From Candidatus Poribacteria bacterium (GTDB taxonomy: Bacteria; Abyssobacteria; SURF-5), in NCBI GenBank assembly GCA_016215705.1, contig JACRIR010000004.1:1-52740 (forward strand): DNA of 52,740 nucleotides, in the 5' to 3' direction. The position numbers were made by a program, and so were the translations under genes. Shown here in pieces: positions 6,918 to 37,381 of the stretch. The notes under the pieces were generated by a model. That model did no database searches. It was not told the origin of the DNA and worked only from the letters and a program-made list of their open reading frames with translations. Numbering within the stretch: the stretch's first letter is position 1; each line of letters opens with the position of its first letter.

Positions 6918-7526
6918 CTTTGGGGAAAAGACCCCCGATAGCGTACCAGTCTCCCCTCCTAAGTGTATTACAATATATATTTTACATCATGCGAGCCAAC
7001 CTGTCAACGCGAGCACAATGATTTTGCAGAAATCTGCTTGACGGAATCTTTCCTCAAAGATGCACAATGAACGACGGCTACAAGACGTTTCAGCAAAGAG
7101 GAAGCCTTAGCTGTTACTGGTTTTGCGGCGTGACCTAACCAGGTTGTGGGGTGCGTTCATCTTCTTCCACAACCCCTTGTATGCTTGTCATACATACTGG
7201 ATCGGAGATGTAGATAATGGAGATTCGTGGCACATATCTTGCTTTAAGTGCAGTATAATACGTCACTTGCGCCTTGGCGGCACAAGTGTGACAACAGGAA
7301 AGGGATCGCTTAGCTCCATATGGATCAAGGGGTTGGGAGAGACCGACAGATCATTTCAGTAGAAAAAAAGTCTTTCCGTTCAGCCACCGGGTCGGCAACG
7401 AAGGGACCGGTAATGAACGAAATTGACCGGCATCCATGCCTACAGGCAGCGATTGTAGGAACACACAAGATTCAGGAAGCTTTCTACCGGGGTCTTGAGT
7501 GAAATGAGGAAAATGTCTCGGCGCGT

Positions 7527-8621
7527 GTGTCTCGACGCGAGTGTCCGGGACAGTCACCTATGGTTGAAGCGCTGAACGTATTATTGGGTTGCGATGTCGA
7601 CCCGGACCGTCCTCGTTACGGAGGCGCGCGGTATGACACGCGCGACGATCAACTGACGTGGCGCAGCATAAGCGAGGGCATTCAACTGCTTCAGCAGGTC
7701 TTGGATGGAATCGGTATCCAGGCCGGTGTCAAGCCCAAGGTTATCTTTTGTCTCCGGGCTGACACCCAGATGCGAGATATTTATGGGGACGCAGCATGGC
7801 CAATCACGAAATATGCAGACCTTTGGCGCTCGCTCGAACAGGACGGCCATGAGCTTGCATGGCATCCACATCTTTGGCGTTGGAGCAACGAATCCGGATG
7901 CTGGTATCAAGAGACAGAGGATGAGAATTGGATTTCCGAATGCCTCGAGACCGGACATGCCGGATTCACTAAGGCACTTGGAAAAACTCCGGTTACTTGC
8001 CACATGGGCTGGACGTTTCACAACAATGTTTCAATGAGAAGAATCTCCGAGTTGGGTCTAAGAGTCGATTTCTCCGGCTGCCCGGGTGTTTTCTTTGGAG
8101 GTGGGCCGGGGAGCGCGGGGACTGTTTTCGACAACAAGATTGACTGGTTGGGAACGCCGCTGCGCTGGTATCGCCCATCGGAAGTTGACTACAGGCGTCC
8201 GGCGGGCGGGGGGGAGGCCGGATTATCCGTTGTGGAGATTCCAAAGTTCACGACTCGCTCGGGCGTCTTAAGAAAAGTCAAGGGCCTCGCGGCGCGCGGG
8301 AAAAGAGCGCCGGGCACAGGCGCAGCGACTGCCGCTTTCTTGCAGATAACGTCCCTTCCGATGCTTTATTCGCGAGTCATTGCAGAGCGGCTTGCCTGCC
8401 GGGAGGCCGATCCTTTCTTTGCGACCTATTTTCACCCTGACGAACTGCTTGCCGACCGGCCGCGGTCCGCGAAGAATTTTCTGTATTCCCTTGCGAATCT
8501 GGAGAAGAACGTGAAAGGGTTAGTGCGAGCCGCGAGACAAGACGGCAGAGAGGTTTCTTTTGTCACCGGCGCTGAGGCGCTTGAATATATGGTTGGCGGA
8601 ACAAGAAACAGTGGCGTTTAG
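7527..8621 (+). CDS. Hypothetical protein, possibly a metal-dependent carbohydrate esterase / deacetylase-like fold
   Basis: 364-aa ORF with coding-like composition and His-rich motifs (HELAWHPHLWRW). I cannot assign a family from sequence alone. Confidence 0.35.
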   Translation: MSRRECPGQSPMVEALNVLLGCDVDPDRPRYGGARYDTRDDQLTWRSISEGIQLLQQVLDGIGIQAGVKPKVIFCLRADTQMRDIYGDAAWPITKYADLWRSLEQDGHELAWHPHLWRWSNESGCWYQETEDENWISECLETGHAGFTKALGKTPVTCHMGWTFHNNVSMRRISELGLRVDFSGCPGVFFGGGPGSAGTVFDNKIDWLGTPLRWYRPSEVDYRRPAGGGEAGLSVVEIPKFTTRSGVLRKVKGLAARGKRAPGTGAATAAFLQITSLPMLYSRVIAERLACREADPFFATYFHPDELLADRPRSAKNFLYSLANLEKNVKGLVRAARQDGREVSFVTGAEALEYMVGGTRNSGV

Positions 8622-19722: not shown

Positions 19723-19751
19723 TTGACAGGAACCGGTTTGTATACTATAAT
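19723..19751 (+). promoter_or_regulatory. Consensus sigma-70 promoter (TTGACA-17 bp-TATAAT) reading into the gvp locus
   Basis: TTGACA at 19723-19728, an exact 17-bp spacer, and TATAAT at 19746-19751. Confidence 0.55.
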
Positions 19752-19975: not shown

Positions 19976-20617
19976 ATGAGAACGCTGCTCTATATTCCCA
20001 TTATTCACACCAGCGCCGACATGGGCTCGCTGGCTGACCCGGTTCGAAGAATCACCGTTGAAAGACTTGGGTGGAGAAGGTGGAAAAATAATGCCGAGGC
20101 AATTGATCAGTTGTGGCAACTGATTCGAGGGGAAATCGAGAATCTGGACCTGCCTTACTCAAAGGTGCGCCTCTATCAGGACGGACTCCCCGTTTGCGGG
20201 CGCGAGGTCGCCATCGTAGACGATTTGGCCAGGGCGGAAAGCCCTAATCACAAACTTCTCTTTTATCTGATGGGGCGGGGGGCAACCCTGATGGGAACAG
20301 AATCGCCCGATCTTCTGATGGAGGAGTATTCTCTGCTTCAAAGGGTCGTGGCCTCCCGGGGGTTGGCGGGCGCCGCCAGGATCGAACAACAGCAAAAAGC
20401 GTTACGACAAAGCTTGTTGGAGCGGCGGGACCGATTCATTGCGGCTCGAATCAATGAGACTCTCGGCGATGGGGAAACAGGGGTCATTTTTCTGGGTATG
20501 CTTCACTCGCCTCAGCGTTGGCTCGAGCCGGATATCAAGGTTCTCTATCCGGTTTCGACAATCGCCTCGCTCAACAAACAAGGGGCCCGCAAGCCCGAAG
20601 GGAAGAAGGCGCAATAG
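19976..20617 (+). CDS. Hypothetical protein, first gene of the gvp regulatory block
   Basis: First in-frame ATG (MRTLLYIPII...). The ORF-track TTG at 19760 coincides with the predicted transcription start, so I reject it. No recognisable domain. Confidence 0.35.
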   Translation: MRTLLYIPIIHTSADMGSLADPVRRITVERLGWRRWKNNAEAIDQLWQLIRGEIENLDLPYSKVRLYQDGLPVCGREVAIVDDLARAESPNHKLLFYLMGRGATLMGTESPDLLMEEYSLLQRVVASRGLAGAARIEQQQKALRQSLLERRDRFIAARINETLGDGETGVIFLGMLHSPQRWLEPDIKVLYPVSTIASLNKQGARKPEGKKAQ

Positions 20618-22071
20618 TGGCACGTCCCAAGGTTCTGATAGTGGATGACCAGCAGGATATGCGCTGGACAATTCGGATGATTGTTGAGAAGGCGGAGATG
20701 GATGCCATGGAGGCAACCGACGGCGATACTGCCCTCCGGATGATCCGGTCCTCATCGCCTGACGTTGTTCTGCTGGATATCCGGATTCCCGGCATTGACG
20801 GCTATGAGGTGCTGCGCTGCGCAAAGGCGCTGAACAGTAGCCTGCCGATCATCATGATCACCGGATTCGGTGGCATTAGAGACGCCGTCCAAACGCTGAA
20901 GGCCGGCGCATGTGACTACCTGCACAAACCCTTCCAAAATGACGAGCTTGTTCTGACAATCCGCAGGGCGCTGAATGGAAACCGTCTCAAACGAGACGGC
21001 GGATATAATGGAGGCTGCAAAGAAGCGCATCTATCCCTTCACGAACAAATGGGCTACAGCGCCAGAATTCAGTCCCTGGCTTCAGAAGTGACACGCGTTG
21101 CTTCCACAGATTTTTCTGTCCTCATCGTCGGGGAAACCGGAGTGGGTAAGGAAGTCGTCGCCCAGGCGCTCCATGCCCAAAGTCGTCGACACTCCGGCAT
21201 GCTTGTTGCTATGGATTGCGGAGCAATCCCGGACACACTGATCGAAAGCGAACTGTTCGGCCACGAGAAGGGGGCATTCACAGGCGCCGACCGCGTAAAG
21301 CAGGGGAAGTTCGAGGTGGCCGCGGGTGGGACCCTGTTCTTCGACGAGATATCTAATCTCTCGCTGACGTTACAGACAAAATTGCTCCGAGTGCTACAGG
21401 AAAGGCAGTTTTATCGGGTCGGCGGCAACATGGCTATCAGGGCGGATGTCCGTATTGTGACAGCGACAAACCGAGACCTCTCCTCCCCGTCTGAGGAGTC
21501 CTCGTTCCGCAGCGACCTCTATTATCGCCTCGCTGAATACGTCATCCATGTTCCGCCCCTGCGTGACCGCAAGGAGGACATCACATTTCTCGCAAACCGC
21601 TTCTTGAAGATCACAAATCTCGAGATTGGCAAGCGTGTCAGCGAAATATCGGAACCAGCGATGGAATTGCTCGCAGGATATGATTGGCCGGGTAACGTTC
21701 GGGAGCTTCGAAACGTTGTGCGGCGGGCTGTATTATTGGCGAGCGATGTCATAGTCCCTCAGCATTTGGGTCCACTTAGACTGATGGGCACGAATGTCCT
21801 CCCATCGACACTATCGGTCGAATTCGTGAACACGGACAGAATGTCCTTCAAAGAAATCATGCGCCACAATGCCATGGACGTCGAAAGAGCTTTACTCCGC
21901 CGGGTGCTGGAACGCACTAAGGGGAACAAGGCTGAGGCCGCACGCATTCTCAAGATAGACTACAAGACCATTCATACAAGAATAAAGAAATATGCGATTT
22001 CGGTGAAGGGAGACAATCATGACAATGAGGAAAAGCAGTTCCGATGCCGGCAAGGGAGCGAGGTCCTCTGA
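20617..22071 (+). CDS. Sigma-54-dependent response regulator (NtrC family): receiver + AAA+ + HTH; GvrA-like
   Basis: GTG start with a TAGTG overlap and SD GAAGGGAAGAAGG. The receiver has VLIVDDQ...D. The AAA+ domain has GETGVGKE and the GAFTGA motif (ELFGHEKGAFTGA). A C-terminal Fis-type HTH is present. Confidence 0.85.
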   Translation: MARPKVLIVDDQQDMRWTIRMIVEKAEMDAMEATDGDTALRMIRSSSPDVVLLDIRIPGIDGYEVLRCAKALNSSLPIIMITGFGGIRDAVQTLKAGACDYLHKPFQNDELVLTIRRALNGNRLKRDGGYNGGCKEAHLSLHEQMGYSARIQSLASEVTRVASTDFSVLIVGETGVGKEVVAQALHAQSRRHSGMLVAMDCGAIPDTLIESELFGHEKGAFTGADRVKQGKFEVAAGGTLFFDEISNLSLTLQTKLLRVLQERQFYRVGGNMAIRADVRIVTATNRDLSSPSEESSFRSDLYYRLAEYVIHVPPLRDRKEDITFLANRFLKITNLEIGKRVSEISEPAMELLAGYDWPGNVRELRNVVRRAVLLASDVIVPQHLGPLRLMGTNVLPSTLSVEFVNTDRMSFKEIMRHNAMDVERALLRRVLERTKGNKAEAARILKIDYKTIHTRIKKYAISVKGDNHDNEEKQFRCRQGSEVL

Positions 22072-22552
22072 GGGTGGCATGGGGGGACTCTTCAAAGGTT
22101 TGTCCGATTTATTGGAGAAGCTGGGAGACCTTGCTGACAAAGGACAAGAACTGCAGAAAACGGGGGAATTCCGGAAGGCGGTTGGGGCGAACGACATCAA
22201 AGGTGTCTATGGCTTCAGTGTCAAAGTGGGCCTTGGCGGCGAAGGAGTGAAGGTTGAACCCTTTGGCAATATCCACAAGGACGAAGCTTCCGGTGAGACC
22301 ATCGTGCAAGAAGTGCGTGAGCCGATAGTTGACGTTTTCGAGGAAAAAACACATGTGCTGGTCGTGGCCGAGATGCCCGGCATAGGTACTGATAACCTCC
22401 AGTTGGACCTGAAGGACGATATATTGACCATCTCGGCAAATAGGGAAGATCGGAAATATCGCAAAGAAGTGCTGCTTCCCGGAACCTTCACCCGCGACAA
22501 AATGACGGTCGCTTGTCATAACGGCGTCGTAGAGATCAGATTACGCAAGTAG
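22019..22552 (+). CDS. Hsp20 / alpha-crystallin family protein (GvpH-like)
   Basis: The C-terminal alpha-crystallin domain is VDVFEEKTHVLVVAEMPGIGTDNLQLDLKDDILTISANRE...GVVEIRL. SD GAAGGGA is present. Confidence 0.75.
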   Translation: MTMRKSSSDAGKGARSSEGGMGGLFKGLSDLLEKLGDLADKGQELQKTGEFRKAVGANDIKGVYGFSVKVGLGGEGVKVEPFGNIHKDEASGETIVQEVREPIVDVFEEKTHVLVVAEMPGIGTDNLQLDLKDDILTISANREDRKYRKEVLLPGTFTRDKMTVACHNGVVEIRLRK

Positions 22553-22563
22553 GGGGTTAAGAA

Positions 22564-24708
22564 ATGGCCACGAGCGACGGCGCAACGCTCAAGCTCAGGG
22601 TGACGGAAGCCCTCAGCAAAGACGTGGGGCGGGCATTCGTCCGGATGGACCCGCAGGACCTTGAGAAATTGCATGCGCAAATCGGCGACATAGTGGAAGT
22701 CAGCGGCAAGCGACAGACGGTTGGAAAGGCGATGCCTGCGTACAAGGAGCAGCGAGGTCAGTCCCGGATCCAAATGGACGGGCTCGCGCGGGAGAATGCC
22801 GGCGTCGGCCTGGACGAACACGTGCGGGTTCGAAAGGCCGAGACGCGGAACGCCACTCGCGTCCAGCTTGCTCCCACAACCGTAACTCCGGGAAACCGGG
22901 ACCTGAAATACATTGGGGCGCTTCTCGACGGCTTGCCTGTCGTTGAGGGTGACCGGATTCGGGCTGCGCTGTTCGGCAGCCGATGGGCCGATTTTGTCGT
23001 TGAAAGCGCCACGCCCAAGGGGACGGTGCTCATTACTCCTTCGACACAACTCGTCATAGGCAAGGCAGCCGAAGAAGCCAGGACGGGAACGATTTCTTAT
23101 GAAGATGTCGGGGGACTCAAACCTCAACTCCAACGTATACGCGAGATGATCGAACTGCCTCTTCGGTACCCAGCCGTATTCCAGCGCCTCGGCATCGACG
23201 CCCCTAAGGGAGTTCTTCTTTATGGCCCTCCCGGTTGTGGCAAAACGCTTATTGCCCGCGCCATTGCGCACGAAACGGAAGCCGACTTCTTCTCGGTCAG
23301 TGGTCCCGAAATTATTCACAAATTCTACGGCGAAAGCGAAGCGCATCTCCGGAAGATTTTCGAGGAAGCCGCCCGCAAAGGGCCAAGTATTATTTTTCTC
23401 GACGAGATCGACGCCATTGCTCCTCAGAGAGAGAAAGTCGTTGGGGACGTGGAGAAAAGAGTGGTCGCCACCCTCCTGGCGCTGATGGACGGTCTTAATA
23501 AACGGCAAAACGTAATTGTCATTGCTGCAACAAACATACCTCAAATGCTCGACCCTGCGTTGCGCCGCCCCGGCCGGTTCGACCGCGAAATATCTATTCC
23601 GATACCCGATCGAAATGGACGTCGGCAAATATTGGAGATTCACAGCCGTGGGATGCCGCTGGCCGACGATATTCGACTTGATCATCTCGCCGAGATCACG
23701 CACGGCTTTGTTGGAGCCGACTTGGAGGCGTTGTGCCGCGAAGCGGCCATGATCCGCCTGCGTCACATCATCCCCGACATTGATTTTGCCATGACCAGTA
23801 TTCCCTATGATCTGTTGGCGAAGCTTGAAGTGAAGATGGAGGACTTTCTTGAAGCTTTGCGCGAAGTCGAGCCGTCAGCGATAAGGGAGGTATTTGTCGA
23901 AGTCCCGGATGTACGCTGGCAACACCTTGGCGGTCTTAGCGAGGTAAAGGCCCGGCTGATCGAGGCTGTCCAGTGGCCACTAAAATATCCGCAACTTTTC
24001 GAGAGCGCGGGGATCAAGCCTCCAAAGGGCATCCTTCTATCGGGACCACCGGGATGTGGCAAAACCATGCTGGCCAAAGCCCTTGCCACTGAGAGCGCTG
24101 TGAATTTTATTTCAGTAAAGGGCCCCTCGCTTCTCTCCAAATGGGTGGGGGAGTCGGAGAAAGGGGTACGCGAGGTTTTCCATAAAGCCAGGCAGGCGGC
24201 GCCGTGCATTGTTTTCTTCGACGAAATCGACTCTTTGATTCCTGCCCGTGGCGGTCTCTCCTCGGATTCACACGTCTCCGAGCGGGTCCTCAGCCAGTTT
24301 CTGGCCGAACTCGACGGCATCGAGGAACTCAAGGGAGTTCTGGTGCTAGGCGCCACCAATCGAGCAGATTTGCTGGACTATGCCGTCCTCCGGCCGGGAC
24401 GCTTTGACGAGGTTGTGGAGATTCCCCTGCCTGACGAAAAAGAGCGTTGCGAGATATTTGAGGTGCATTTGCGTGGCAAACCGTTAGACGCGGAGGTCGA
24501 CGCAAAACAGTTGGCAGCCATGACCGATGGACTCAGCGGCGCAGATATTTTCGGCATTTGCCATAAGGCCGCATTGGAGGCCGTGCGAAGGGCCGTGGCA
24601 AAAATCGGCGACAGCGGAAAGAACCAGGAAAACATCGGCGTGCTTATTACAAAGGATGACCTGCTCCAGGCCGCGACGCGAGAGGCGAGGACAACAACGA
24701 ATCGCTGA
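22564..24708 (+). CDS. CDC48/VAT-like AAA+ ATPase (N-domain + D1 + D2)
   Basis: N-terminal double-psi-barrel-like region, then two Walker A sites (GPPGCGKTLIARA and GPPGCGKTMLAKA), each with the SRH region. 714 aa. SD AGGGGG is present. Confidence 0.85.
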   Translation: MATSDGATLKLRVTEALSKDVGRAFVRMDPQDLEKLHAQIGDIVEVSGKRQTVGKAMPAYKEQRGQSRIQMDGLARENAGVGLDEHVRVRKAETRNATRVQLAPTTVTPGNRDLKYIGALLDGLPVVEGDRIRAALFGSRWADFVVESATPKGTVLITPSTQLVIGKAAEEARTGTISYEDVGGLKPQLQRIREMIELPLRYPAVFQRLGIDAPKGVLLYGPPGCGKTLIARAIAHETEADFFSVSGPEIIHKFYGESEAHLRKIFEEAARKGPSIIFLDEIDAIAPQREKVVGDVEKRVVATLLALMDGLNKRQNVIVIAATNIPQMLDPALRRPGRFDREISIPIPDRNGRRQILEIHSRGMPLADDIRLDHLAEITHGFVGADLEALCREAAMIRLRHIIPDIDFAMTSIPYDLLAKLEVKMEDFLEALREVEPSAIREVFVEVPDVRWQHLGGLSEVKARLIEAVQWPLKYPQLFESAGIKPPKGILLSGPPGCGKTMLAKALATESAVNFISVKGPSLLSKWVGESEKGVREVFHKARQAAPCIVFFDEIDSLIPARGGLSSDSHVSERVLSQFLAELDGIEELKGVLVLGATNRADLLDYAVLRPGRFDEVVEIPLPDEKERCEIFEVHLRGKPLDAEVDAKQLAAMTDGLSGADIFGICHKAALEAVRRAVAKIGDSGKNQENIGVLITKDDLLQAATREARTTTNR

Positions 24709-24740
24709 CCAAACAAGAGTTTTCCTGCGGGTTTCTGAAT

Positions 24741-25283
24741 ATGCCGAGATCTATTCCTCCAAAGACTATGTCGAACGTGCGCCGGCAAGCGCGCAGCCGT
24801 GACCGTTCCAGGTCGCGGCCTGGCGGCGGCCTGTATCTGAAACTCGGTGGATGTGGTTCACAGGTTTCCCGACATCGGCCTCCCACCGAGACGAAATTCA
24901 GCGCTTCGGTTTTCCGGAAGCCCCGCAGTTGGCGATTCCAAATAAAGCCGCTGTTCAAGAGGATAAGAGGACTGGGGATCGATGTCTTTCATGAGGCCGA
25001 GGAAGTGCTCATCGTCATCGACCTAGGAGGGTTCCGCCGCGGCGATGTTTCGTTGAGTATGACTCCGGAGAAATACTCGGTATATGCGAGACAAGGCGAT
25101 GAGGAGTTTAGGGAAGAAATCGTTTTGCCGCCCGACGTGGATGTCGAGCGGTCCGTGGAGAACCTGAGAAACGGAGTCCTCGAGATTCTGCTCCCAAGGA
25201 AAAAGGGAGATACACAGGAGGTGAAATCTCATGAAGACCTGCCAGCAAGGAAGAAGCCAGACAATACTAATCGTAGAAGATGA
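24741..25283 (+). CDS. Second Hsp20-like (GvpH-like) protein; the N-terminus is uncertain and may be frameshifted
   Basis: The C-terminal half (IDVFHEAEEVLIVIDLGG...VLEILLPRK) is paralogous to the alpha-crystallin domain of 22019-22552. The N-terminal 75 aa is Arg-rich low complexity with no SD. Confidence 0.45.
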   Translation: MPRSIPPKTMSNVRRQARSRDRSRSRPGGGLYLKLGGCGSQVSRHRPPTETKFSASVFRKPRSWRFQIKPLFKRIRGLGIDVFHEAEEVLIVIDLGGFRRGDVSLSMTPEKYSVYARQGDEEFREEIVLPPDVDVERSVENLRNGVLEILLPRKKGDTQEVKSHEDLPARKKPDNTNRRR

Positions 25284-25650
25284 TAAGAATGTGTATGACA
25301 CTCTTTCACAACTGCTTCGCGGCGAGGGCTACCGAACAGTCTGGGCTGAGAGTGGCGGCCAAGCGATTAAGACAATGGCGTCTGTCGCCCCTGCCCTAAT
25401 AGTCCTTGACTTGATGTTGCCCGACCGTCACGGTATCGAGGTGTTGGGCCAGATCAAGTCTATGACAAGAGACGTGCCAGTCATCATTCTGACCGGCTTT
25501 GGCTCAACGGATACGGTTCGAAGCGCCATGGAGATGGGAGCTTTTGATTACCTTACGAAGCCTTCCGATCTGAGTGAGTTTTGTGGAGTAGTTCGGGCAG
25601 CCCTCGAATCTGAACGCAGGTGTGGAGCCGCTTCACCGGCGGCGCAATAG
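25231..25650 (+). CDS. Stand-alone CheY-like receiver protein
   Basis: ILIVEDD...D(LIVLDLMLPD)...K motifs, SD GGAGG. Confidence 0.75.
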   Translation: MKTCQQGRSQTILIVEDDKNVYDTLSQLLRGEGYRTVWAESGGQAIKTMASVAPALIVLDLMLPDRHGIEVLGQIKSMTRDVPVIILTGFGSTDTVRSAMEMGAFDYLTKPSDLSEFCGVVRAALESERRCGAASPAAQ

Positions 25651-25664
25651 TCAAGGAGTGCACA

Positions 25665-26513
25665 ATGACCGACAACGGCCACAATCCGGAGGCCGGACGC
25701 GATCACGCCGAGGGCATCTATTTGTTCTGTTTTGCGCGTCAAAATGCAGCACAGGCTGTTGGGCTTCGCGGTCCGGATGACCGGAGTCCCGTGTCACAGC
25801 GGCAATTCAAAGATATCGTGGCGGTGCTGAGTAAGGTTCCTCTCGGCGAGTGGATCGGCCCTTCCTCAGAAGCAAACCTGCAAGACCTGAGTTGGGTGGG
25901 GCCTCGAGCTTGTCGACATCAAGAAATAATTGAACAGGCAATGCGATATTCCTCAGTCTTGCCGGCAAGATTCGGGACCATTTTTTCTTCCTCAGAACGA
26001 CTAGAGGATACGTTCTGCTCTCACTATGACTCGATATCCGAATTCCTCGATTATGCGGCCGATAAGGAAGAGTGGGCGCTTAAGGGCCTGTTGGATACAG
26101 CGAAGGCCGAGGATCACCTGCTTGCCCGTGGCTCTCGATCCACAAATCTCCCGCCATCTTCGGGGGCACGATATATGATGGAGAAGCAGCTTCGGATCGA
26201 GGCCAAGAGGAAAATGAAGACGTGGGCAAAAACACTAAGCGATACTATTGTCGAGGAACTTCAGCCTCTTGCGGTGGAATCACGCGCCTTGAAGACTTTG
26301 TCACGGTATGCATCGGGAAGAGAATTGGATGTGGCCTTCAACTGGGCCTTTCTCTTGACATGTGAGGGCCGAGATGGTTTCCTCTCAAGCGTAGAACGTC
26401 TCAACGATGACTACTCCCGGCATGGACTCGAACTCGAAATATCGGGGCCGTGGCCACCCTATAGTTTCTGCCCCTCCCTTTCGCATGACAAGGAACCCGA
26501 AAAGATCGAGTGA
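25665..26513 (+). CDS. gvpF: Gas vesicle protein GvpF/L family (paralog 1)
   Basis: The N-terminal YLFCFAR block and overall pattern match the two other paralogs at 26556 and 32180 and the GvpF/L family. SD AAGGAG is present; the ORF track start is 25620. Confidence 0.65.
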   Translation: MTDNGHNPEAGRDHAEGIYLFCFARQNAAQAVGLRGPDDRSPVSQRQFKDIVAVLSKVPLGEWIGPSSEANLQDLSWVGPRACRHQEIIEQAMRYSSVLPARFGTIFSSSERLEDTFCSHYDSISEFLDYAADKEEWALKGLLDTAKAEDHLLARGSRSTNLPPSSGARYMMEKQLRIEAKRKMKTWAKTLSDTIVEELQPLAVESRALKTLSRYASGRELDVAFNWAFLLTCEGRDGFLSSVERLNDDYSRHGLELEISGPWPPYSFCPSLSHDKEPEKIE

Positions 26514-26555: not shown

Positions 26556-27362
26556 ATGAACGGGCCTTTCCTTGTTTATGGAGTCATCCCGACTAAACCG
26601 CTCGCACCCCCTGTGCCCTCCGCAGGAGTTGAAGGGCTTCCAGTCGAGTTGATCGAGAATGATGGGATAGGGGCAGCGGTCTCGCGTATTCATGCTATTG
26701 ACCCTGCTTTGTTGACGCCTGAGATTGGCCGTGTTCTGGCCTATGAAAAGGTAATCGAAGCATTGCACCGACTGAGCGCAGTCTTGCCTATGCGCTATGG
26801 GTGCGTTATGAAGAGTGAATCTCACGTCACCGAATTCCTCAGCAAACGCGGCCAGGACTATCAATACGCCTTGACGCATCTGGAGGGGTGCTCCGAGTAT
26901 GCGATCCGAATCCTGCTGCCACGCGGGAGCCACGAACCGCCAAACGGTGGACGGAGTATCGAAAATAGGGATCGAGCCCCCTGTCCGCCAGAGTCTCACT
27001 CCGGCAGGATGTATCTGAAAAACCGAAAGGAATACTATGCCCTGAAGGATCAATCTGCCGAGGAGGAGACTGAAGCGGTCGAGCGCTGCCGGGCCGCTTT
27101 TGCGCAGATGTACGTCGAGTGGAGGTCGGAATATTCGCCGGTTTGCCCGGCAGAGATAGCTCGCAAGCGGGTGAGCGGAGAATCCCGTAGATTTCGTGTT
27201 TCACCTGCGGCAGGAACGTCCCTGGTATCACTATATTTCTTGGTAGCAAGGGAAATGGAACAGTCCTTCATAGAACGCTTCAGGCGGCTGTGCGACACGA
27301 AATCCGCAAAGATGCTCATGACGGGTCCCTGGCCCCCATATAACTTTGTTCCACGCATGTAG
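26556..27362 (+). CDS. gvpL: Gas vesicle protein GvpF/L family (paralog 2)
   Basis: FLVYGVIP...RIHAID...VLPMRYG pattern, SD GAGGGAGGG. Confidence 0.65.
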   Translation: MNGPFLVYGVIPTKPLAPPVPSAGVEGLPVELIENDGIGAAVSRIHAIDPALLTPEIGRVLAYEKVIEALHRLSAVLPMRYGCVMKSESHVTEFLSKRGQDYQYALTHLEGCSEYAIRILLPRGSHEPPNGGRSIENRDRAPCPPESHSGRMYLKNRKEYYALKDQSAEEETEAVERCRAAFAQMYVEWRSEYSPVCPAEIARKRVSGESRRFRVSPAAGTSLVSLYFLVAREMEQSFIERFRRLCDTKSAKMLMTGPWPPYNFVPRM

Positions 27363-27376: not shown

Positions 27377-28888
27377 ATGACACAGCATGGCGCATCACTC
27401 ACGAACAATCACGGGACCGCATCCACGGATACCCTCGTTTCTGAGGGCCGCTATGAGAAGCTTTACAGAATGCTGATGGATGCTACTCCCTCATCGGTTC
27501 TTTTGCTCGACCAGGGTCTGCGGGTAGTTGTGGCCAACCATAACTTTCTCGAGAAAGCTCAGAGGTCCGAACATGACACCATAGGCCGAAGGCTCAACGA
27601 AGTATTCCCCATCGTCATCCTCCGCGAAATGGAGTTGGAGCAATGGATACAGCAGGTTTTCCAGAAAGGAGAGCCTGTGCGAGGCAAGCGCATGCGCTAT
27701 AGGGCGCCCGGGGTTGCGGACCGGATTTATTATTACAGTCTCATCCCTGTAACGTGGCATAGAAAGACCGAGAACGTGATGTTGCTCATGGATGATGTCA
27801 CGGAACAGGTGCGCCTGGGTGAGGAAGTGCTGCAGGCGGAACGCCATCTGGCAAGCATAGTCGAAAGCGCCAGCGACATTATTGTCTCGACCGATACTGA
27901 AGGACGCATCATGACGTGGAACAAGGCGGCTCAAGAGGCTACTGACTACTGTCTGCAGGAAGTCGCACACCATCCATTTTTTGATTTCTTTGCTTCAGAC
28001 TGCAAGACCGCAGTGAAAGGAGCCCTCGAGAATCCAGAGAGCCCCGGAAGGTCCGCATACACTGAGTGGAACCTCAAGACGAAACGTGGCCACGAGATAC
28101 CCGTCTCATGGGTGTGCTCCAGGATGAGGGATGGCAGAGGCAAGGTTCAAGGGATTGTGGCGGTCGGCAGGGACCTCACCGAACGCCGTAAACTGGAGAC
28201 CCAGGTGCTTCAGTCGCAGAAGCTGGCCGCACTGGGTGTCATGGCCGGAGGCATTGCCCACGAGATTCGAGGACCTCTGGCGATTGCTTCTTCGGCGGCG
28301 CAGTTTCTGATGGAAGATGAGGTCAGCCCTTCGCTCCTGATAGAGTGTACTCAGAGAATTCATCGAGGGATCCAGAGGGCGTCCACTATCATCGAAGACC
28401 TGCTGAGATTCTCGCGGCCCTCCATTCCCAAGAAGCCTACTGAAAGAGTCGATCTCGCGCTGGTTGTGAAAGATACCATCGCGCTTGTCCACAGCCAGGC
28501 TCAGATCGAGAAGGTCAATGTGACCGTCAAGGCGCCCGCTGCGCCGGTAATTGTTACAGGCGTTGCCAGCATGCTTCAACAGATGGTGATGAACATCCTA
28601 CTGAATGCATTTAACGCTCTGTCCGATGACGGCGGCAGAGTGGACGTTATCGTAAGTGACGAAGGCGAGTTTGCGGTCTTGAAAGTAACCGATAATGGCT
28701 GCGGCATTCCGCAAAGCGAGATTAACAAGATATTCGACCCGTTCTACACCACAAGCCCGCCGGGGAAAGGCACAGGATTGGGTCTTTCTCTTTGCTACTC
28801 CATCGTTAGACATCACAATGGAACTATTCAGGTTGAGAGCACGGAAGGAGCAGGCACCTCCTTGATCGTCCGACTGTCCTTGTCGTGA
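27377..28888 (+). CDS. PAS-domain sensor histidine kinase (GvrB-like)
   Basis: Two PAS-like regions, an H-box (HEIRGPLA), and N / G1 / G2 boxes (DNGCGIP, GTGLGLS). Confidence 0.85.
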   Translation: MTQHGASLTNNHGTASTDTLVSEGRYEKLYRMLMDATPSSVLLLDQGLRVVVANHNFLEKAQRSEHDTIGRRLNEVFPIVILREMELEQWIQQVFQKGEPVRGKRMRYRAPGVADRIYYYSLIPVTWHRKTENVMLLMDDVTEQVRLGEEVLQAERHLASIVESASDIIVSTDTEGRIMTWNKAAQEATDYCLQEVAHHPFFDFFASDCKTAVKGALENPESPGRSAYTEWNLKTKRGHEIPVSWVCSRMRDGRGKVQGIVAVGRDLTERRKLETQVLQSQKLAALGVMAGGIAHEIRGPLAIASSAAQFLMEDEVSPSLLIECTQRIHRGIQRASTIIEDLLRFSRPSIPKKPTERVDLALVVKDTIALVHSQAQIEKVNVTVKAPAAPVIVTGVASMLQQMVMNILLNAFNALSDDGGRVDVIVSDEGEFAVLKVTDNGCGIPQSEINKIFDPFYTTSPPGKGTGLGLSLCYSIVRHHNGTIQVESTEGAGTSLIVRLSLS

Positions 28889-28907: not shown

Positions 28908-29285
28908 ATGACCCGCAAACACGAGATGATCCTGATCGTTGATGATGAACCGGATATGTGCTGGGCCCTCGAGAGAATTCTCAGAGGGATGGGTTTCGCC
29001 ACGGAAACCGTCGGCGACGCGCAAAAAGCGCTCGGGCTGGTCAAACGGACCCGCTTCAGATTGGCCTTCCTCGACGCCAAGCTTCCCGATATGGAGGGTA
29101 TCGACCTGGCAATATGCCTGCAAAAAGCCATTCCGCCCGTGCCCGTCGTGCTGGTTTCGGCTTACTTCTATGAAGATGATGCGCAAGTCCAGCAGTGGAT
29201 CAGAGACGGATTCATATGTCATTTTGTGAGCAAGCCCTTTGTGATCAACCGCGTGCGGGAAGCGGCAGCCATGGCCATCAACTAA
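28908..29285 (+). CDS. Receiver-domain response regulator (GvrC-like)
   Basis: ILIVDDEPD...D(AKLPD) pattern, 125 aa. Confidence 0.7.
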   Translation: MTRKHEMILIVDDEPDMCWALERILRGMGFATETVGDAQKALGLVKRTRFRLAFLDAKLPDMEGIDLAICLQKAIPPVPVVLVSAYFYEDDAQVQQWIRDGFICHFVSKPFVINRVREAAAMAIN

Positions 29286-29464: not shown

Positions 29465-29480
29465 TGGCATACCTATTGCT
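29465..29480 (+). promoter_or_regulatory. Sigma-54 (-24/-12) promoter for gvpA: TGGCAT-accta-TTGCT
   Basis: The GG and GC dinucleotides are spaced exactly as in the consensus TGGCACG-N4-TTGCA. It sits 120 nt upstream of the gvpA ATG, and a sigma-54 activator is encoded in the locus. Confidence 0.6.
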
Positions 29481-29601: not shown

Positions 29602-29820
29602 ATGGCGAAAGTACAGAAGTCAACTGACAGCTCCAGCCTCGCGGAAGTTGTGGACCGCATTCTGGACAAGGGCATCGTGATCGATGCTTGGGCGAAGGTC
29701 TCGTTGGTGGGCATCGAGCTCCTTTCCATCGAGGCGCGCGTGGTCATCGCTTCAGTGGAGACCTACTTGAAGTATGCGGAGGCTATCGGCCTGACTGCCA
29801 GCGCCGCTGCGCCGGCCTAA
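29602..29820 (+). CDS. gvpA: Gas vesicle structural protein GvpA
   Basis: 72 aa. [52 protein letters not shown] is a near-canonical GvpA. SD GGAGGGAGG is present. Confidence 0.95.
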
Positions 29821-29847
29821 CCGTTAAGAGTGCACGAAAGCCTGTTG

Positions 29848-29880
29848 CCAGGCGGGGCCTCATATGGTGTCCCCGCCTGG
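29848..29880 (+). terminator. GC-rich hairpin immediately after gvpA (CCAGGCGGGG-13 nt-CCCCGCCTGG); likely attenuator or partial terminator
   Basis: Perfect 10-bp stem read directly from the sequence. There is no strong U-tract. Read-through would reach gvpC/gvpN. Confidence 0.5.
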
Positions 29881-30024
29881 CTTCCGGCTTGGCCTTCGCA
29901 CGTGATCCGGCAGAGATTCCGCGCACAAGGCGCAACCTTATGGGCGCGTCGGCATATCGTCGATCGTGGTCCTGAACATATAATCGATCTTTGTCCCAAC
30001 CGCAATGGGAGAAGGAGTGGCAAA

Positions 30025-30573
30025 ATGGGGCCTCTGACACAAGATTTGGCGCGGCTGCGCGATGAGATTACATCCGCGCGCGATGCGCGAAAGCAGCTCA
30101 TTGGCAGTGTGAAGGAGTTCGTCGGCAACCTCAAGGAATCCGTCGACGATTTGACATCGAACGCGGCTGCAATGCGGGCCGATTTTCGCAAAACCCACGC
30201 CGCGACAGTCAGGAAGGCGAAGGCGGAGCTTTCGGGATGCGTGTCCGACATAAAGCGCAACGTCTCGTCGATGCAATCCGCCTTCCGCAACGCGAACACT
30301 GAGGCGGCCAGAAAGACGAAGGCCGATTGCGCAGCTTTTGCGTCCGGCGTGAGACAGACGGTGGCTGGCATAAAACGGGCGACTGCAAGAACGAGGAAAG
30401 AAGTCGCAGCCGACATCAACGGCGCGCACCGCGCCTGGTTAGGCGCCCGGCCGACACGGATCGAGGTCGTGCACAAGCCCGAGCTCCACCGGACGGAGAC
30501 GGTGGCAAGAGTCGGGAGCCGATCCGAAGAGTCAGAGAAGCGTGTTTCCGCCAAAACCAAGAAGAGGAGGTAA
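30025..30573 (+). CDS. gvpC: GvpC-like outer gas-vesicle protein with about four 33-residue repeats
   Basis: It sits between gvpA and gvpN, the canonical position. An ATG with SD AGGAG is present. The repeats align at a 33-aa period (xxxVxD[LI]xxNxxxMxxxFRxxxxxxxRKxKA). The ORF track start at 29830 lacks an SD. Confidence 0.6.
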   Translation: MGPLTQDLARLRDEITSARDARKQLIGSVKEFVGNLKESVDDLTSNAAAMRADFRKTHAATVRKAKAELSGCVSDIKRNVSSMQSAFRNANTEAARKTKADCAAFASGVRQTVAGIKRATARTRKEVAADINGAHRAWLGARPTRIEVVHKPELHRTETVARVGSRSEESEKRVSAKTKKRR

Positions 30574-30636: not shown

Positions 30637-31674
30637 ATGGTTAACGACTTGGGAATCGCAAAGGAATCTGTGAAAATGAACCGGGATGGCTTGACGGCGA
30701 GCGCATCGGCGACCACCGTGAGGATTCAGGTAGAGGGTGACGGAATCATGCCGGAACCGAGCGATGAGTTTGTCATGACGCCGCGCCTTGAGGAGCTGAC
30801 TGAACGTGCTCTCACTTATCTGGAAGTGGGATACCCTGTCCATTTTGCCGGTCCGGCGGGAACAGGGAAAACTACAATCGCCTTCCACGTCGCGAGCAAG
30901 CTGGGCCGACCCGTGATCCTCATTCACGGGGATGACGAGTTTGGCGGTTCCGATCTGGTGGGAAAGGACGCCGGCTACCGCAAGTCAAGACTTGTCGACA
31001 ATTTTATTCATTCCGTTCTCAAAACAGAGGAAGAGATGAGAACGCTATGGGTGGATAACCGGCTCACCACTGCTTGCCAGCATGGTTACACTCTTGTATA
31101 CGACGAGTTTAACCGAACGAGGCCTGAGGCCAACAATGCCCTCTTGAGTATTCTCTCGGAAAAAATGCTCAACCTGCCGAAGCTCCGAACCTCTGGCGAA
31201 GGCTATATGGAAGTGCATCCCAACTTCCGCGCCATTTTCACTTCGAATCCGGAAGAATATGCGGGCACCCACAAGACCCAGGATGCTCTTATGGATCGGC
31301 TCATTACCATCAGGCTCGGCCACTACGACCGCGAGACTGAAATCGCAGTCACAATGGCCAAGTCGGGCATCTCGAAAAAAGATGCCGAAATCATCGTGGA
31401 CATCGTCAGGGAACTGAGAGGTGTCGGCGTAAACAACAACCGGCCAACCATCCGGGCCTGTATCGTGATCGCCAAGGTGCTCGCACATCGTGGAATCCGG
31501 GCGCGGGCGGGCAACCCCGTTTTCAGGCGCATCTGCCAGGACGTGCTAAGTGGAATAGACACAGCCAAAGTCACCTGTGGCGGCCAATCGCTCATGCCGC
31601 AAAAAGTGGATGAAGCCACCCGGAAAGTGGTGCAAGCGGTCCTCAGAACGGATGAAATCAACGAGAAGGAATAG
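30637..31674 (+). CDS. gvpN: Gas vesicle AAA+ ATPase GvpN
   Basis: Walker A (GPAGTGKTT), the CbbQ/NorQ-type AAA core, and gvpN synteny. The alternative start at 30676 (MNRDG) has SD AAGGA. Confidence 0.85.
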   Translation: MVNDLGIAKESVKMNRDGLTASASATTVRIQVEGDGIMPEPSDEFVMTPRLEELTERALTYLEVGYPVHFAGPAGTGKTTIAFHVASKLGRPVILIHGDDEFGGSDLVGKDAGYRKSRLVDNFIHSVLKTEEEMRTLWVDNRLTTACQHGYTLVYDEFNRTRPEANNALLSILSEKMLNLPKLRTSGEGYMEVHPNFRAIFTSNPEEYAGTHKTQDALMDRLITIRLGHYDRETEIAVTMAKSGISKKDAEIIVDIVRELRGVGVNNNRPTIRACIVIAKVLAHRGIRARAGNPVFRRICQDVLSGIDTAKVTCGGQSLMPQKVDEATRKVVQAVLRTDEINEKE

Positions 31675-33017: not shown

Positions 33018-33302
33018 ATGTTCATAGTCGATGACATACTGTTGTTCCCCGTGCGCAGTCTGCTCTTTGTTCTTCGCGGAATTCACAAGGCCGCCAGAGA
33101 GGAAATCGAAAACGAGGCGGAATCCATAAGAAGAGAACTCACCGACTTGTACATGATGTTGGAGACCGGAAGGATCAGCGAGGAGGAGTTCCAGGCGCAG
33201 GAGCAAGAATTGCTGGATCGACTCGAGGATGCCGAGTTTCACGGCACGGAGGTTGAAGACGACCAGCCCGAGTCCCTGGGGACCGATGAAATCGAAATGT
33301 GA
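33018..33302 (+). CDS. gvpG: Gas vesicle protein GvpG
   Basis: MFIVDDILLFPVRSLLFVLRGIHKAA...EEFQAQEQELLDRLEDAE matches the conserved GvpG N-terminus (MFILDDLF...). Confidence 0.75.
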   Translation: MFIVDDILLFPVRSLLFVLRGIHKAAREEIENEAESIRRELTDLYMMLETGRISEEEFQAQEQELLDRLEDAEFHGTEVEDDQPESLGTDEIEM

Positions 33303-33309
33303 GGTTGAA

Positions 33310-35283
33310 ATGTCTGAAGGCGCGGTGGCGCACAAGGCATACGCCGCGACACCGACGAGGATGCCTGTATTCCTGCTGGAAACGGGGCTCAGGCTGCTCC
33401 TTTTTGGCGGCAAAGGTGGCGTGGGAAAAACCACCTGTGCCGTTGCCACAGCTCTTTATTTGTCCGCACGTTTTCCGGATGATAACGTCCTTCTGGTCTC
33501 CACCGACCCTGCTCATTCATTGAGGGATAGTTTGGGTGAATCCGTTCTCCCTCGAAATCTTGAACCTCTCGAGATCGACTCACGTGAGTGTCTTAGAAAA
33601 TTCAAGGAGGCTCATGTCGAGCACCTTCGCCAAATCGCCCTGCGGGGCACTTTTCTTGACAACGAGGACGTGTCGCAACTCTTGGATTTGTCTATGCCCG
33701 GCCTGGATGAGGTCATGGCGTTTAACGAGATTTCCACTCTTGTGCAGACGGGTGTCTACTCGCGCGTCATCGTTGACACGGCGCCAACGGGCCACACGCT
33801 CCGGCTGCTCGAATTGCCGGAGACTTTGAACAACTGGCTCCGTGCTCTTGACGCCATGCTGGCCAAGCATCGGTACATGGTGCAACTGTACCAAGGTTCT
33901 TATCGCAAGGATGAGGTAGACATCTTCTTGCTCGACCTTGCCAGGTCGATCGAAAACCTTTCCTCGCTCTTGCGTGATTCGGCCCACTGCCGTTTTGTCC
34001 CGGTCATGCTTCCCGAATGCCTGAGCACAAACGAGACCATGCGGTTGGTGCGCCAACTGGAGGCCATGAGAATCCCGGTGACTGATATCCTGGTCAACCG
34101 CGTCCGTCCTCTGGTTGGCCGATGCCCGGTATGCCGGTCTGTGGCGGACCGCCAAAGCATGGAACTTGAAACAGTGCTGAACGAATTCTCCTCCTATTCC
34201 GTCTGGGGCCTACCCCTTCGCTGCGTGGAAGCGCGCGGAGCAGAGCAACTGAGCATTTTCTTTAACAGCATTTGGCAAGTCCACAGATTCAACGGGGAAA
34301 TGCATGATTCGACGAGACTATTCCCCCGTGTTGAACACCCGGCCGAATTGCCGGGCCATGACATCTCGCTTTTGATCTTCGCAGGTAAGGGAGGGGTCGG
34401 CAAAACCACACTCGCATGTGCGACAGCGCTCCGTCTGGCTCGAGAGTATCCTGACAAAAGGATTCTGCTCCTTTCAACCGACCCGGCTCATTCGCTCTCT
34501 GACTGCCTGAACACAAGTGTGGGAGCGGGGGAAACACCTCTGCGGCCGTGTCTGACTGCAGTCGAGATCGATGCCGTGGCTGAATTTGAGGAATTGAAGA
34601 GGCAGTACGGCGATGAGGTCGGCAAAGTGTTCGATTCCCTCGCTGGACGCACCATGATCCAGTTGGAATTCGACCAGGAAGTCATGAAACGCATGTTGGA
34701 CCTTTCTCCTCCGGGGCTTGATGAGGTCATGGCGCTGACCAGAGCTATGAGACTTCTGCAAGCCCGGAAGTATGATATCTTTGTCTTCGATACGGCGCCC
34801 ACCGGTCATCTTATCCGGTTGCTGGAACTGCCCGAAATCATCGAGAAGTGGCTCAAGGTCTTCTTCGGTCTGTTCCTGAAGTATCGGGAAGTGTTTCGGT
34901 TGCCCAAGATCGCTGAGCGCCTGGTCGCCATGTCCAAGGAAGTCAAACTGTTGCGATCTTTGTTGGCAGACCCGCAAAAGGGACAGATTTACGCGGTAAG
35001 CATCTTGACGGAGATGGCTCTCGAGGAAACACGAGACCTCCTTGCATCATGCGCCCAAACCGGCATCCGCGTGCCGGCGCTTTTTCTTAATCTGGTCACT
35101 TCGGCTAATGATTGTCCCACGTGCCATCGCCTCGCCGAATCTGAATCAAGGGTCCGTAGACAATTCGACGAGTGCTTCAGAGAGTTACACCAGACAGTGG
35201 TGTTCCACGGTCCGGAACCACGGGGAGGCGACCATCTGTCCGAGTTGGGACAAGTTCTGTATGAGGTTGCAGCAAACTATTAG
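33310..35283 (+). CDS. Tandem-fused ArsA/GET3-family ATPase (two P-loop halves, each with the DTAPTGH signature and a CxxC)
   Basis: Two deviant Walker A motifs (GKGGVGKTT) are present. The signature DTAPTGHTLRLLELPE / DTAPTGHLIRLLELPE occurs twice, and each half has a CxxC (CPVCRS, CPTCHR). SD GAGG is present. The start at 33310 is in frame with ORF track 33229. Confidence 0.8.
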   Translation: MSEGAVAHKAYAATPTRMPVFLLETGLRLLLFGGKGGVGKTTCAVATALYLSARFPDDNVLLVSTDPAHSLRDSLGESVLPRNLEPLEIDSRECLRKFKEAHVEHLRQIALRGTFLDNEDVSQLLDLSMPGLDEVMAFNEISTLVQTGVYSRVIVDTAPTGHTLRLLELPETLNNWLRALDAMLAKHRYMVQLYQGSYRKDEVDIFLLDLARSIENLSSLLRDSAHCRFVPVMLPECLSTNETMRLVRQLEAMRIPVTDILVNRVRPLVGRCPVCRSVADRQSMELETVLNEFSSYSVWGLPLRCVEARGAEQLSIFFNSIWQVHRFNGEMHDSTRLFPRVEHPAELPGHDISLLIFAGKGGVGKTTLACATALRLAREYPDKRILLLSTDPAHSLSDCLNTSVGAGETPLRPCLTAVEIDAVAEFEELKRQYGDEVGKVFDSLAGRTMIQLEFDQEVMKRMLDLSPPGLDEVMALTRAMRLLQARKYDIFVFDTAPTGHLIRLLELPEIIEKWLKVFFGLFLKYREVFRLPKIAERLVAMSKEVKLLRSLLADPQKGQIYAVSILTEMALEETRDLLASCAQTGIRVPALFLNLVTSANDCPTCHRLAESESRVRRQFDECFRELHQTVVFHGPEPRGGDHLSELGQVLYEVAANY

Positions 35284-36838: not shown

Positions 36839-37381
36839 ATGAACGTCTACAAGTGCAGAATCTGCGGAGACCCTTACGTAGGCAACACAAAACCTTCGAA
36901 TTGCCCATTTTGCGGGGCCCCTGCCAAGTATATAATACTTGCCGAAAACTGGGTTGAATCGGCTGTTCCCGAATTGACTGAGGTTTCGCGAAAGAATCTT
37001 GAAGCCTCGCTCAAGCTCGAAATCGAGAACACTCAATACTATCGCTGCGCCGCGGACTCTTCAAAGGACCCAATGGCGCAGGCTATGTTCAAGGCGCTTT
37101 CTCGAGTGGAAGCGGAGCATTCCGCGAAGGTGTGCAAGCTTCTGAACCATACAAAGGTCGAGATCGAGGATGATCCCAGGGCCTGCCTCGGCGTAACGGA
37201 TGAAGAGCGATTGAAAGAAGCGTTGCGCCGCGAACAGAGCGCCGTGAAATTCTACACTTCAGCGGCCGCCTCTGCCAAGGAAGCGCCGGTGAAAGAGTTT
37301 TTCGATGCGCTTGTCGAGGTTGAAAGCGACCACATAAGCCTATCGAATCTGGGTCTGGGATTGCCGGTAGAGGTTGCCTGA
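36839..37381 (+). CDS. Rubrerythrin-family protein with N-terminal rubredoxin-like zinc ribbon (reverse-rubrerythrin arrangement)
   Basis: CRICG...CPFCG at the N-terminus is followed by a ferritin-like four-helix region with ExxH-type motifs. SD AGGAGG is present. Confidence 0.65.
   Translation: MNVYKCRICGDPYVGNTKPSNCPFCGAPAKYIILAENWVESAVPELTEVSRKNLEASLKLEIENTQYYRCAADSSKDPMAQAMFKALSRVEAEHSAKVCKLLNHTKVEIEDDPRACLGVTDEERLKEALRREQSAVKFYTSAAASAKEAPVKEFFDALVEVESDHISLSNLGLGLPVEVA

Follow-up and report, generated by a model that had tools for sequence, protein, structure and literature searches.

The gas-vesicle gene cluster of Serratia is among the closest described systems to the locus considered here, and it contains a gene, gvpZ, that was reportedly named in 2011. 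The papers on gvpZ that can be searched give GvpZ as "unknown function," and a review from 2022 counts GvpV, W, X, Y, and Z among the non-essential proteins specific to bacteria (PMC9501494). The homologous Serratia genes have been treated as one predicted operon running from gvrA to gvrC, which was examined by reverse-transcription PCR and rapid amplification of 5' cDNA ends (PMC4982088). We analyzed a stretch of 52,740 nucleotides (nt) from Candidatus Poribacteria bacterium (assembly GCA_016215705.1, contig JACRIR010000004.1, positions 1 to 52,740 of the forward strand), hereafter the window, which contains a complete gas-vesicle (gvp) cluster. Our main subject is one gene of this cluster, located directly behind gvpH at 22564 to 24708 (+) and encoding a 714-residue double-ring AAA+ ATPase of the CDC48/VAT type that is almost certainly the counterpart of gvpZ.

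Several other described systems resemble parts of this arrangement. VAT from Thermoplasma carries aromatic pore loops in both of its rings. The window ATPase shares the N-D1-D2 architecture of VAT and archaeal Cdc48, and its best match among solved structures is VAT (5g4f), with a full-length similarity of 690 bits. It differs from both in being bacterial, in having no HbYX-type tail, and in being dedicated to a gas-vesicle neighborhood. Small heat-shock proteins working with Hsp100 motors offer a second comparison. In the IbpA/B and ClpB system, as with Hsp26 and Hsp104, a holdase keeps its clients extractable by a double-ring AAA+ threading motor. The likeness would lie in the way of working only, as the ATPase found here belongs to the classical AAA Cdc48 clade, no Hsp70 partner is encoded nearby, and cooperation between GvpH and the ATPase is putative. 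Actinobacterial ARC/Mpa proteins also share AAA modules with the window ATPase, but membership in that family was rejected, as the pup_AAA model gave 416.6 bits where 504.75 are needed, far less than the CDC48 model score.

Among the gas-vesicle proteins themselves, GvpN is also a cluster-encoded ATPase, and an initial annotation of the window, made from the sequence alone, was right that it is encoded separately in this locus (30637 to 31674, +; TIGR02640, 351 bits). GvpN is a single-module protein of the MoxR/AAA_5 type that is needed to enlarge bicones into cylinders (PMC9501494), whereas the Cdc48-type protein combines an N-domain with two classical AAA rings and is dispensable in Serratia. 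The haloarchaeal form of GvpH keeps GvpM, a GvpA-like protein, from aggregating (PMC6107691). We found no paper tying gas vesicles or GvpZ to Cdc48 or VAT, although most subscription journals lay outside the search, so that absence is not proof; neither "AAA" nor "ATPase" occurs in the texts of PMC4982088 and PMC10344784. An explicit link between GvpZ, the Cdc48/VAT unfoldases, a near-obligate GvpH partner, and a haloarchaeal heat-shock pair (discussed below) was not found stated in the searchable literature. Annotation pipelines already label such genes "CDC48 family AAA ATPase," so a specialist reading the annotation would see the CDC48 identity.

A Cdc48/VAT-type ATPase linked to gvpH

The initial annotation had placed three consecutive genes on the forward strand, encoding an Hsp20 protein, a Cdc48/VAT-type unfoldase with an N-domain and two Walker A modules, and a second Hsp20 protein. 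All three open reading frames (ORFs) lie where it put them, with gvpH at 22019 to 22552 (177 residues), the ATPase gene following it, and the gene for a second Hsp20-fold protein, a paralog of GvpH, at 24741 to 25283 (180 residues). Judged by hidden Markov model searches, their profile matches are very strong, fall on long ORFs, and are not the product of chance. The ATPase matches TIGR01243 (CDC48 family) with 898 bits over residues 9 to 682, against a cut-off of 802.65. Its N-domain (residues 10 to 167; 22591 to 23064, +) is recognized by both PF02359 (CDC48_N, 87.8 bits) and PF02933 (CDC48_2, 37.1 bits), above their cut-offs, and two AAA modules and two AAA_lid_3 domains are matched by Pfam. 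The D1 module (residues 176 to 455; 23089 to 23928, +) contains the Walker A motif GPPGCGKT, the pore loop KFYGESE, the Walker B motif IIFLDEIDA, and the Arg-finger motif RRPGRFDRE. The D2 module (residues 456 to 680; 23929 to 24603, +) likewise contains a Walker A motif, the pore loop KWVGESE, the Walker B motif IVFFDEIDS, and the Arg-finger motif LRPGRFDEV.

Conservation of these motifs was computed over 182 members of the ATPase clade. Both Walker A motifs, the acidic pairs of Walker B, the Arg-finger motifs, and the pore-1 loops are 86 to 100% conserved. The D1 motifs reach 92 to 100%, and the Walker A, Walker B, and Arg-finger motifs of the two modules together 90 to 100%, barring one variable I/V position in each Walker B. 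The D1 pore loop, KFYGESE, is present in 100% of members, while the D2 loop reads K[Y/W]VGESE, with KYVGESE in most members and KWVGESE here. With conserved motifs in both, the two rings appear competent for catalysis and for mechanical work. The aromatic pore loop of D1 is a VAT-like feature that p97 is not known to have, and the presence of aromatic pore loops in D1 as well as D2 suggests that clients may be threaded through both rings. Mean column conservation is 0.91 in D1, 0.78 in the N-domain, and 0.53 in the variable C-terminal tail. The window protein ends in ...TTTNR, and none of the 182 clade members has a penultimate tyrosine or an HbYX-type tail. The HbYX motif mediates docking to the 20S proteasome; with no such tail, docking is not expected, and proteasome coupling of the ATPase was rejected on this basis.

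The 120 best matches of the ATPase in the protein database are 74 to 79% identical to it where identity was computed. Two long matches, P0002 (1024 residues) and P0020 (993 residues), were considered as possible fusions of GvpH with the ATPase or of the ATPase with GvpF, and both turned out to be triple-AAA proteins. P0002 has three diverged modules, and the D1 segment of P0020 is exactly duplicated, which may be an assembly artefact.

Linkage of the ATPase to gas-vesicle genes is extensive. A genome scan with one genome per species confirmed 553 relatives, of which the best 80, with 63 to 77% identity and from about 12 phyla, were analyzed by mapping the Gvp proteins of the window onto their loci. 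Structural or assembly genes for gas vesicles are present in 73 of the 80 loci, and in 73 of the 75 informative ones once five contigs under 5 kb are set aside. GvpH is encoded directly upstream of the ATPase in 77 of the 80, the other three being cut by contig ends. The metagenome scan, run with an alignment of 24 GvpH sequences, confirmed at least 530 GvpH relatives. Seventy-three of the best 80 metagenome loci had at least 300 nt of downstream sequence, and the ATPase is the next gene after GvpH in 72 of them. The best 80 genome loci come from Desulfobacterota of many orders, Acidobacteriota, Planctomycetota, Rokubacteria, Calditrichota, Verrucomicrobiota, Lentisphaerae, and Sumerlaeota, as well as from a Clostridia metagenome-assembled genome, Myxococcales, Burkholderiales, Shewanella salipaludis, and the gas-vacuolate purple sulfur bacteria Thiocapsa, Thiodictyon, Halochromatium, and Thiohalocapsa. 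These numbers speak against the statement in the initial annotation that bacterial Cdc48 homologs are uncommon.

Gene order around the pair is also conserved. The first three neighborhoods examined share the order activator, GvpH, ATPase, second Hsp20, receiver, GvpF, GvpF, kinase, regulator, and GvpA, and in about 85% of loci the first GvpF paralog begins within about 130 nt behind the ATPase. In loci where the sigma-54 activator is not adjacent (L065, L068-L070, L076-L078, L081, L084, and L085), the pair travels with GvpF or GvpJ. The linkage is kept at 56% identity on a Methylosinus plasmid, where the RefSeq order is gvpA...gvpJ-gvp-gvpH-hypothetical-CDC48, whereas the Rhizobium homolog, 49% identical, lacks it. 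What is conserved, then, is the succession of GvpH and the ATPase, which is widespread as an accessory module in bacterial gas-vesicle clusters. The window cassette, from a metagenome-assembled genome labeled Poribacteria, is one more member of this module, a sub-clade variant with an extra GvpH paralog and a receiver gene.

It could be argued that the pair serves the whole proteome under heat or cold stress and lies beside gvp genes by chance. Hsp20-Cdc48 pairs do occur outside gvp clusters in haloarchaea, where they respond to heat shock, and other bacterial Cdc48 homologs, such as that of Rhizobium, have no gvp context. However, the bacterial pair is found inside gas-vesicle clusters in nearly all informative genome loci and in essentially all metagenome loci, its small heat-shock partner passes the cut-off of the GvpH family model, and a neighborhood conserved across phyla is not expected of a housekeeping gene. 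The neighborhood statistics therefore contradict a housekeeping module, the alternative that the initial annotation had itself raised against a tie to gas vesicles, and we regard general proteostasis as very improbable.

The haloarchaeal pairs are nevertheless informative about where the module may have come from. On plasmid pNRC200 of Halobacterium NRC-1 and on a plasmid of Natrinema thermotolerans, an Hsp20-type gene immediately precedes a co-directional gene for a CDC48-family ATPase; the two pairs occupy 4765 to 7274 of L168 and 4564 to 7214 of L169. These ATPases are 49 to 51% identical to that of the window, and neither pair is in a gvp cluster. The NRC-1 pair consists of hsp5 (VNG6201) and cdc48d (VNG6199), both of which are induced about 3-fold by heat shock (PMC1971269). 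Both GvpH and the second Hsp20 of the window share homology with hsp5 in the alpha-crystallin domain, but hsp5, a short Hsp20 of the canonical kind, has no counterpart of the long conserved N-terminal region of GvpH. We came across no description that treats the haloarchaeal Hsp20-Cdc48 pair as a unit. Read most simply, these data would mean that a stress pair of the archaeal Hsp20-Cdc48 type was specialized for gas-vesicle clusters; as only two archaeal examples were examined, this reading is a lead rather than a result.

Equivalence to gvpZ is indicated by gene order and by published primers. In Psychromonas ingrahamii (CP000510), the order is activator, GvpH, a 732-residue CDC48-family protein, GvpF, GvpF, kinase, and regulator, so that the CDC48-family gene is the sole gene between gvpH and the first gvpF, which is the position of gvpZ in Serratia. 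The window ATPase gene lies between gvpH and gvpF2 in the gvrA operon, with the second Hsp20 and receiver genes inserted ahead of gvpF2. The gvpZ deletion primers were taken from the supplement of PMC4982088. The gene-specific 20-mer of primer gvpZ_3F encodes VRWEDVG and, with up to 3 mismatches allowed, has 13 sites in 2.05 Mb of loci where about 0.1 would be expected by chance. All 13 are on the coding strand of ATPase genes at about codon 450 to 460, where the D2 ring begins. No such clustering was seen with control primers for gvrA and gvpY, and the 3R, 5F, and 5R primers of gvpZ had no clustered matches in the same 2.05 Mb, leaving only 3F informative. Taken together, synteny and the primer match make the ATPase almost certainly the gvpZ product of a Serratia-type cluster, a kind regulated by sigma-54 and GvrA, and the suggestion in the initial annotation that it falls outside the described Gvp machinery has to be dropped. 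The primer positions bear on the mutant phenotype as well. The published in-frame deletion appears to join codon 4 to VRWEDVG at the D2 start, so the deletion behind the non-essential call seems to leave the D2 ring in place, and a D2-only AAA protein may have remained in the Serratia gvpZ mutant.

GvpH and the second Hsp20-fold protein

GvpH of the window is matched by Pfam HSP20 (26.4 bits, cut-off 20.8) and by the GvpH family model PF05455 (25.9 bits, cut-off 22; residues 21 to 175). Its best match in the PDB is the alpha-crystallin domain 4rzk (E = 8.7e-11), and its top NCBIfam model is an archaeal Hsp20 that scores 130 bits, just below the cut-off of 140. The alpha-crystallin domain is at the extreme C-terminus, with only 2 to 3 residues following its last strand (...NGVVEIRLRK). 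The N-terminal region, with its glycine-rich, amphipathic segment and its KGVYGFSVK...VEPFGN element, is conserved across phyla.

The second Hsp20 has a more marginal Pfam match (HSP20, 23.0 bits against 20.8) and at least 149 homologs of 47 to 63% identity. It aligns with GvpH across the C-terminal ~80 residues, while the N-terminal halves of the two proteins are unrelated. An AlphaFold model built with 40 homologs has a predicted local distance difference test score of about 90 at residues ~78 to 155. This domain superimposes on the alpha-crystallin domain of Sulfolobus Hsp20.1 (4rzk) with a template modeling score of 0.75 and a root-mean-square deviation of 1.7 Å, and the top 50 PDB matches of the model are all small heat-shock proteins. 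The N-terminal region is basic and modeled with low confidence, and it contains a conserved KPRNWRFQTKPLFKK element. The tail is also basic, and an I/V-X-I/V motif is not present in it.

Both genes flanking the ATPase thus encode Hsp20-fold proteins in the window, as the initial annotation had described, but the bracket is not a conserved unit. Behind the ATPase, the second Hsp20 occurs in 9 of the 128 loci with room for it, always paired with the receiver gene, and these 9 loci include the closest relatives of the window ATPase. As the receiver-only regulator accompanies the second Hsp20 in 9 of 9 loci, the two form a two-gene unit that might couple the cluster kinase to the chaperone module. 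Further copies of the second Hsp20 were sought in the gaps of two other loci and rejected: the 1-kb gap of L036 has no ORF of at least 70 residues on the ATPase strand, and the gap of L038 contains GvpJ- and GvpK-like genes.

Layout of the gas-vesicle cluster

The complete gvp cluster spans approximately 19.7 to 36.6 kb of the window and is arranged in two blocks, with all genes on the forward strand. Block 1 is preceded by a sigma-70-type promoter-like site at 19723 to 19751 (+), TTGACA-17-TATAAT, which matches 12 of 12 consensus positions and, as a consensus match only, is the likely start of the regulatory and assembly operon. A conserved ORF of 213 residues follows (19976 to 20617, +), abutting the activator gene. 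Equivalent genes of 222 to 223 residues are present in L001 and L003, homologs occur in 22 related loci, and the sole Pfam match is a weak one to TraB/PrgY/GumN. The GvrA-like sigma-54 activator (20618 to 22071, +) has REC, sigma-54 AAA, and HTH_8 domains. Its start is probably the GTG at 20618, giving 484 residues, rather than 20518, judging by the sequence and by a 484-residue ortholog in L001. The gvpH gene overlaps the end of the activator gene and has a Shine-Dalgarno sequence, GGGAG, 7 nt upstream of its ATG, and the ATG of the ATPase gene is 11 nt past the gvpH stop. The cassette is thus tightly spaced and co-directional with the activator, in line with the initial annotation.

Behind the second Hsp20 gene, domain matches identify the receiver-only (CheY-like) response regulator that partners it (25231 to 25650, +), two GvpF/L paralogs in the GvpF2 and GvpF3 positions (25620 to 26513 and 26556 to 27362, both +), a PAS histidine kinase in the GvrB position (27377 to 28888, +), and a response regulator in the GvrC position (28908 to 29285, +). 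The spacing of the block 1 genes fits a single transcript. A split of the operon by internal terminators or promoters was considered and rejected, as scans for both inside 20 to 29 kb gave nothing above the shuffled expectation.

The two blocks are separated by a gap of 316 nt that holds a sigma-54 -24/-12-like site, TGGCATACCTATTGC, at 29465 to 29479 (+). This site has one mismatch to the consensus and lies about 125 nt upstream of gvpA. It is a consensus match only, and because the count of such sites over the whole window is not above chance (56 vs 49.9 expected), it is a positional lead only. A perfect -24/-12 consensus, TGGCACATATCTTGC, is found far from the gvp cluster at 7228 to 7242 (+), about 285 nt upstream of an ORF at 7527 to 8621.

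Block 2, the structural operon, begins with gvpA (29602 to 29820, +) and continues with genes for a helical GvpC-like protein, GvpN, a small protein in the GvpV position, GvpF1, GvpG, a tandem ArsA/GET3-type ATPase, a 122-residue ORF, GvpA2, GvpK, and GvpA3, ending at 36633. The ArsA/GET3-type protein has 684 residues in two P-loop halves (33229 to 35283, +). An ArsA-type gene is present at the same place in about one third of related loci, and ArsA homologs in gvp clusters were reported in 2010 (PMC2963123). The GvpC-like ORF of 247 residues (29830 to 30573, +) is shadowed by an antisense ORF of equal length (29817 to 30560, -), which is probably a compositional artefact. The GvpC-like protein has no family match beyond weak apolipoprotein-like helical repeats. 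Downstream of the cluster are a rubrerythrin-like gene (36839 to 37381) and, at 37396 to 42780 (-), a gene for a 1054-residue protein with glycine-rich NosD-like repeats that looks like a parallel beta-helix, together with an adjoining 738-residue ORF. The rubrerythrin-like gene lies between the gvp cluster and that of the NosD-like-repeat protein.

Compared with Serratia, the window has the same gvpH-gvpZ gene order, seen through Psychromonas, and the same division into two operons with sigma-54 and two-component regulation, and its ATPase gene is matched at the D2 start by the Serratia gvpZ primer. It differs in that the regulatory operon precedes the structural one, as it does in Psychromonas and Desulfomonile. 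The second Hsp20 paralog and receiver-only regulator between the ATPase and gvpF2 are a further difference from Serratia, as is the ArsA-type ATPase in the structural operon.

Candidate roles of the GvpH-ATPase pair

We favor the view that GvpH and the ATPase are a protease-independent holdase and unfoldase pair acting on aggregation-prone proteins of the GvpA family, and we put its probability at roughly 55%, given that the identity of the genes and their linkage are observed while the pair's client, its direction of action, and its physiological role are inferred. GvpH, as a holdase or adaptor, would bind the very hydrophobic GvpA-family proteins, namely GvpA and the GvpJ/M-like GvpA2 and GvpA3. 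The ATPase, a predicted hexamer, would receive these clients through its N-domain and thread them through the aromatic pore loops of both rings, operating without a protease partner. Monomers could then be freed for assembly by the adjacent GvpF/L factors, or else off-pathway aggregates and collapsed shell material could be cleared. In the lineage of the window, the GvpH paralog with its differing N-terminal region and the receiver-only regulator, both added behind the ATPase, may provide a second client or a regulatory input. The initial annotation had proposed a disaggregation role of this kind; its observation of the cassette is confirmed, and its interpretation is partly supported.

A more specific form of this proposal can be made, and we hold it only tentatively. 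GvpH may be an adaptor, derived from a small heat-shock protein, that docks on the Cdc48 N-domain by its conserved N-terminal elements, GG-L/F-x-G-L-x-x-L-V-E-K-L... and KGVYGFSVK-GLGG...VEPFGN, and that hands over GvpA-family subunits to be pulled out of amyloid-like aggregates or the vesicle wall. The pair would then be a dedicated, protease-independent segregase descended from an archaeal heat-shock module.

Several points weigh against a holdase-unfoldase pair of this kind. In canonical small heat-shock proteins, an I-X-I motif in the C-terminal extension mediates oligomerization, and large oligomers are formed. GvpH has no such extension and may therefore not act as a classical holdase. 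In Serratia, strains with gvpH or gvpZ deleted still have intact gas vesicles (PMC10344784), and the heterologous data conflict, as deletions in Escherichia coli lowered the signal in one study (PMC10344784) and raised the yield in a later preprint (10.1101/2024.10.30.621148). Going by published gene lists, many gas-vesicle systems, among them those of cyanobacteria, Bacillus, and haloarchaea, form vesicles although the cluster encodes no such ATPase (PMC9501494), so the role of the pair would have to be auxiliary or conditional. The neighborhood statistics have limits of their own, with the best-80 lists leaning to close relatives and including some redundant contigs. Lastly, two long loci, L023 (8274 to 12124) and L072 (9472 to 12157), retain activator, GvpH, and ATPase while lacking any further gvp gene within 10 kb, and could be remnants or parts of split clusters. 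The activator is directly upstream in L023, where an MscL channel gene follows, and it is on the opposite strand and downstream in L072.

The retention of activator, GvpH, and ATPase in L023 and L072 with no structural genes nearby would also be compatible with a regulatory function, in which the ATPase, with GvpH as adaptor, unfolds or takes apart the GvrA hexamer or GvrB/GvrC and so tunes gvpA transcription. The pair sits in an operon with three regulators, right behind the activator gene, and in the lineage of the window a receiver-only regulator has been inserted beside the second Hsp20. There is also a precedent in haloarchaeal GvpD, an NTP-binding repressor whose presence results in the activator GvpE being degraded (PMC9501494). 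However, there are also loci with no adjacent activator in which the pair closes the structural operon or lies beside GvpF or GvpA, for example in Chromatiaceae, Myxococcales, Phycisphaerales, and Planctomycetales and on the Methylosinus plasmid. The invariant partner of the ATPase is small heat-shock-like, and the archaeal homolog of that partner acts on GvpM rather than on a regulator. Moreover, deletion of gvrA, gvrB, or gvrC abolishes or nearly abolishes vesicles in Serratia, whereas deletion of gvpZ does not. We consider remodeling of the regulators improbable.

That the ATPase is dispensable for vesicle formation under standard conditions can be read in another way, as it is what would be expected of a turnover function. 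Here, the ATPase would extract GvpA from collapsed or surplus vesicles for re-use or removal and would have no part in de novo assembly. A segregase architecture of the Cdc48/VAT type with competent pore loops in both rings suits such a task, and the missing protease-docking tail is compatible with recycling rather than degradation. On the other hand, the conserved downstream neighbors of the ATPase are GvpF paralogs, which are essential for vesicle formation in Serratia, and this fits assembly at least as well. We think recycling unlikely, though less so than remodeling of the regulators, and sequence data do not separate it from the holdase-unfoldase pair favored above.

Engineering of gas-vesicle clusters into acoustic reporter genes is under way. 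A motif-competent double-ring unfoldase, its near-constant link to GvpH, and a heat-induced haloarchaeal pair together provide a testable hypothesis for an anonymous gene, namely ATP-driven quality control or recycling of aggregation-prone shell proteins. If true, this could explain the temperature- and host-sensitivity of heterologous cluster expression, and it would provide a tractable bacterial model of adaptor-directed Cdc48 action without a proteasome. Should GvpH in fact be the docking adaptor, the two proteins would be the first defined adaptor-Cdc48 pair in bacteria, dedicated to a protein-shelled organelle.

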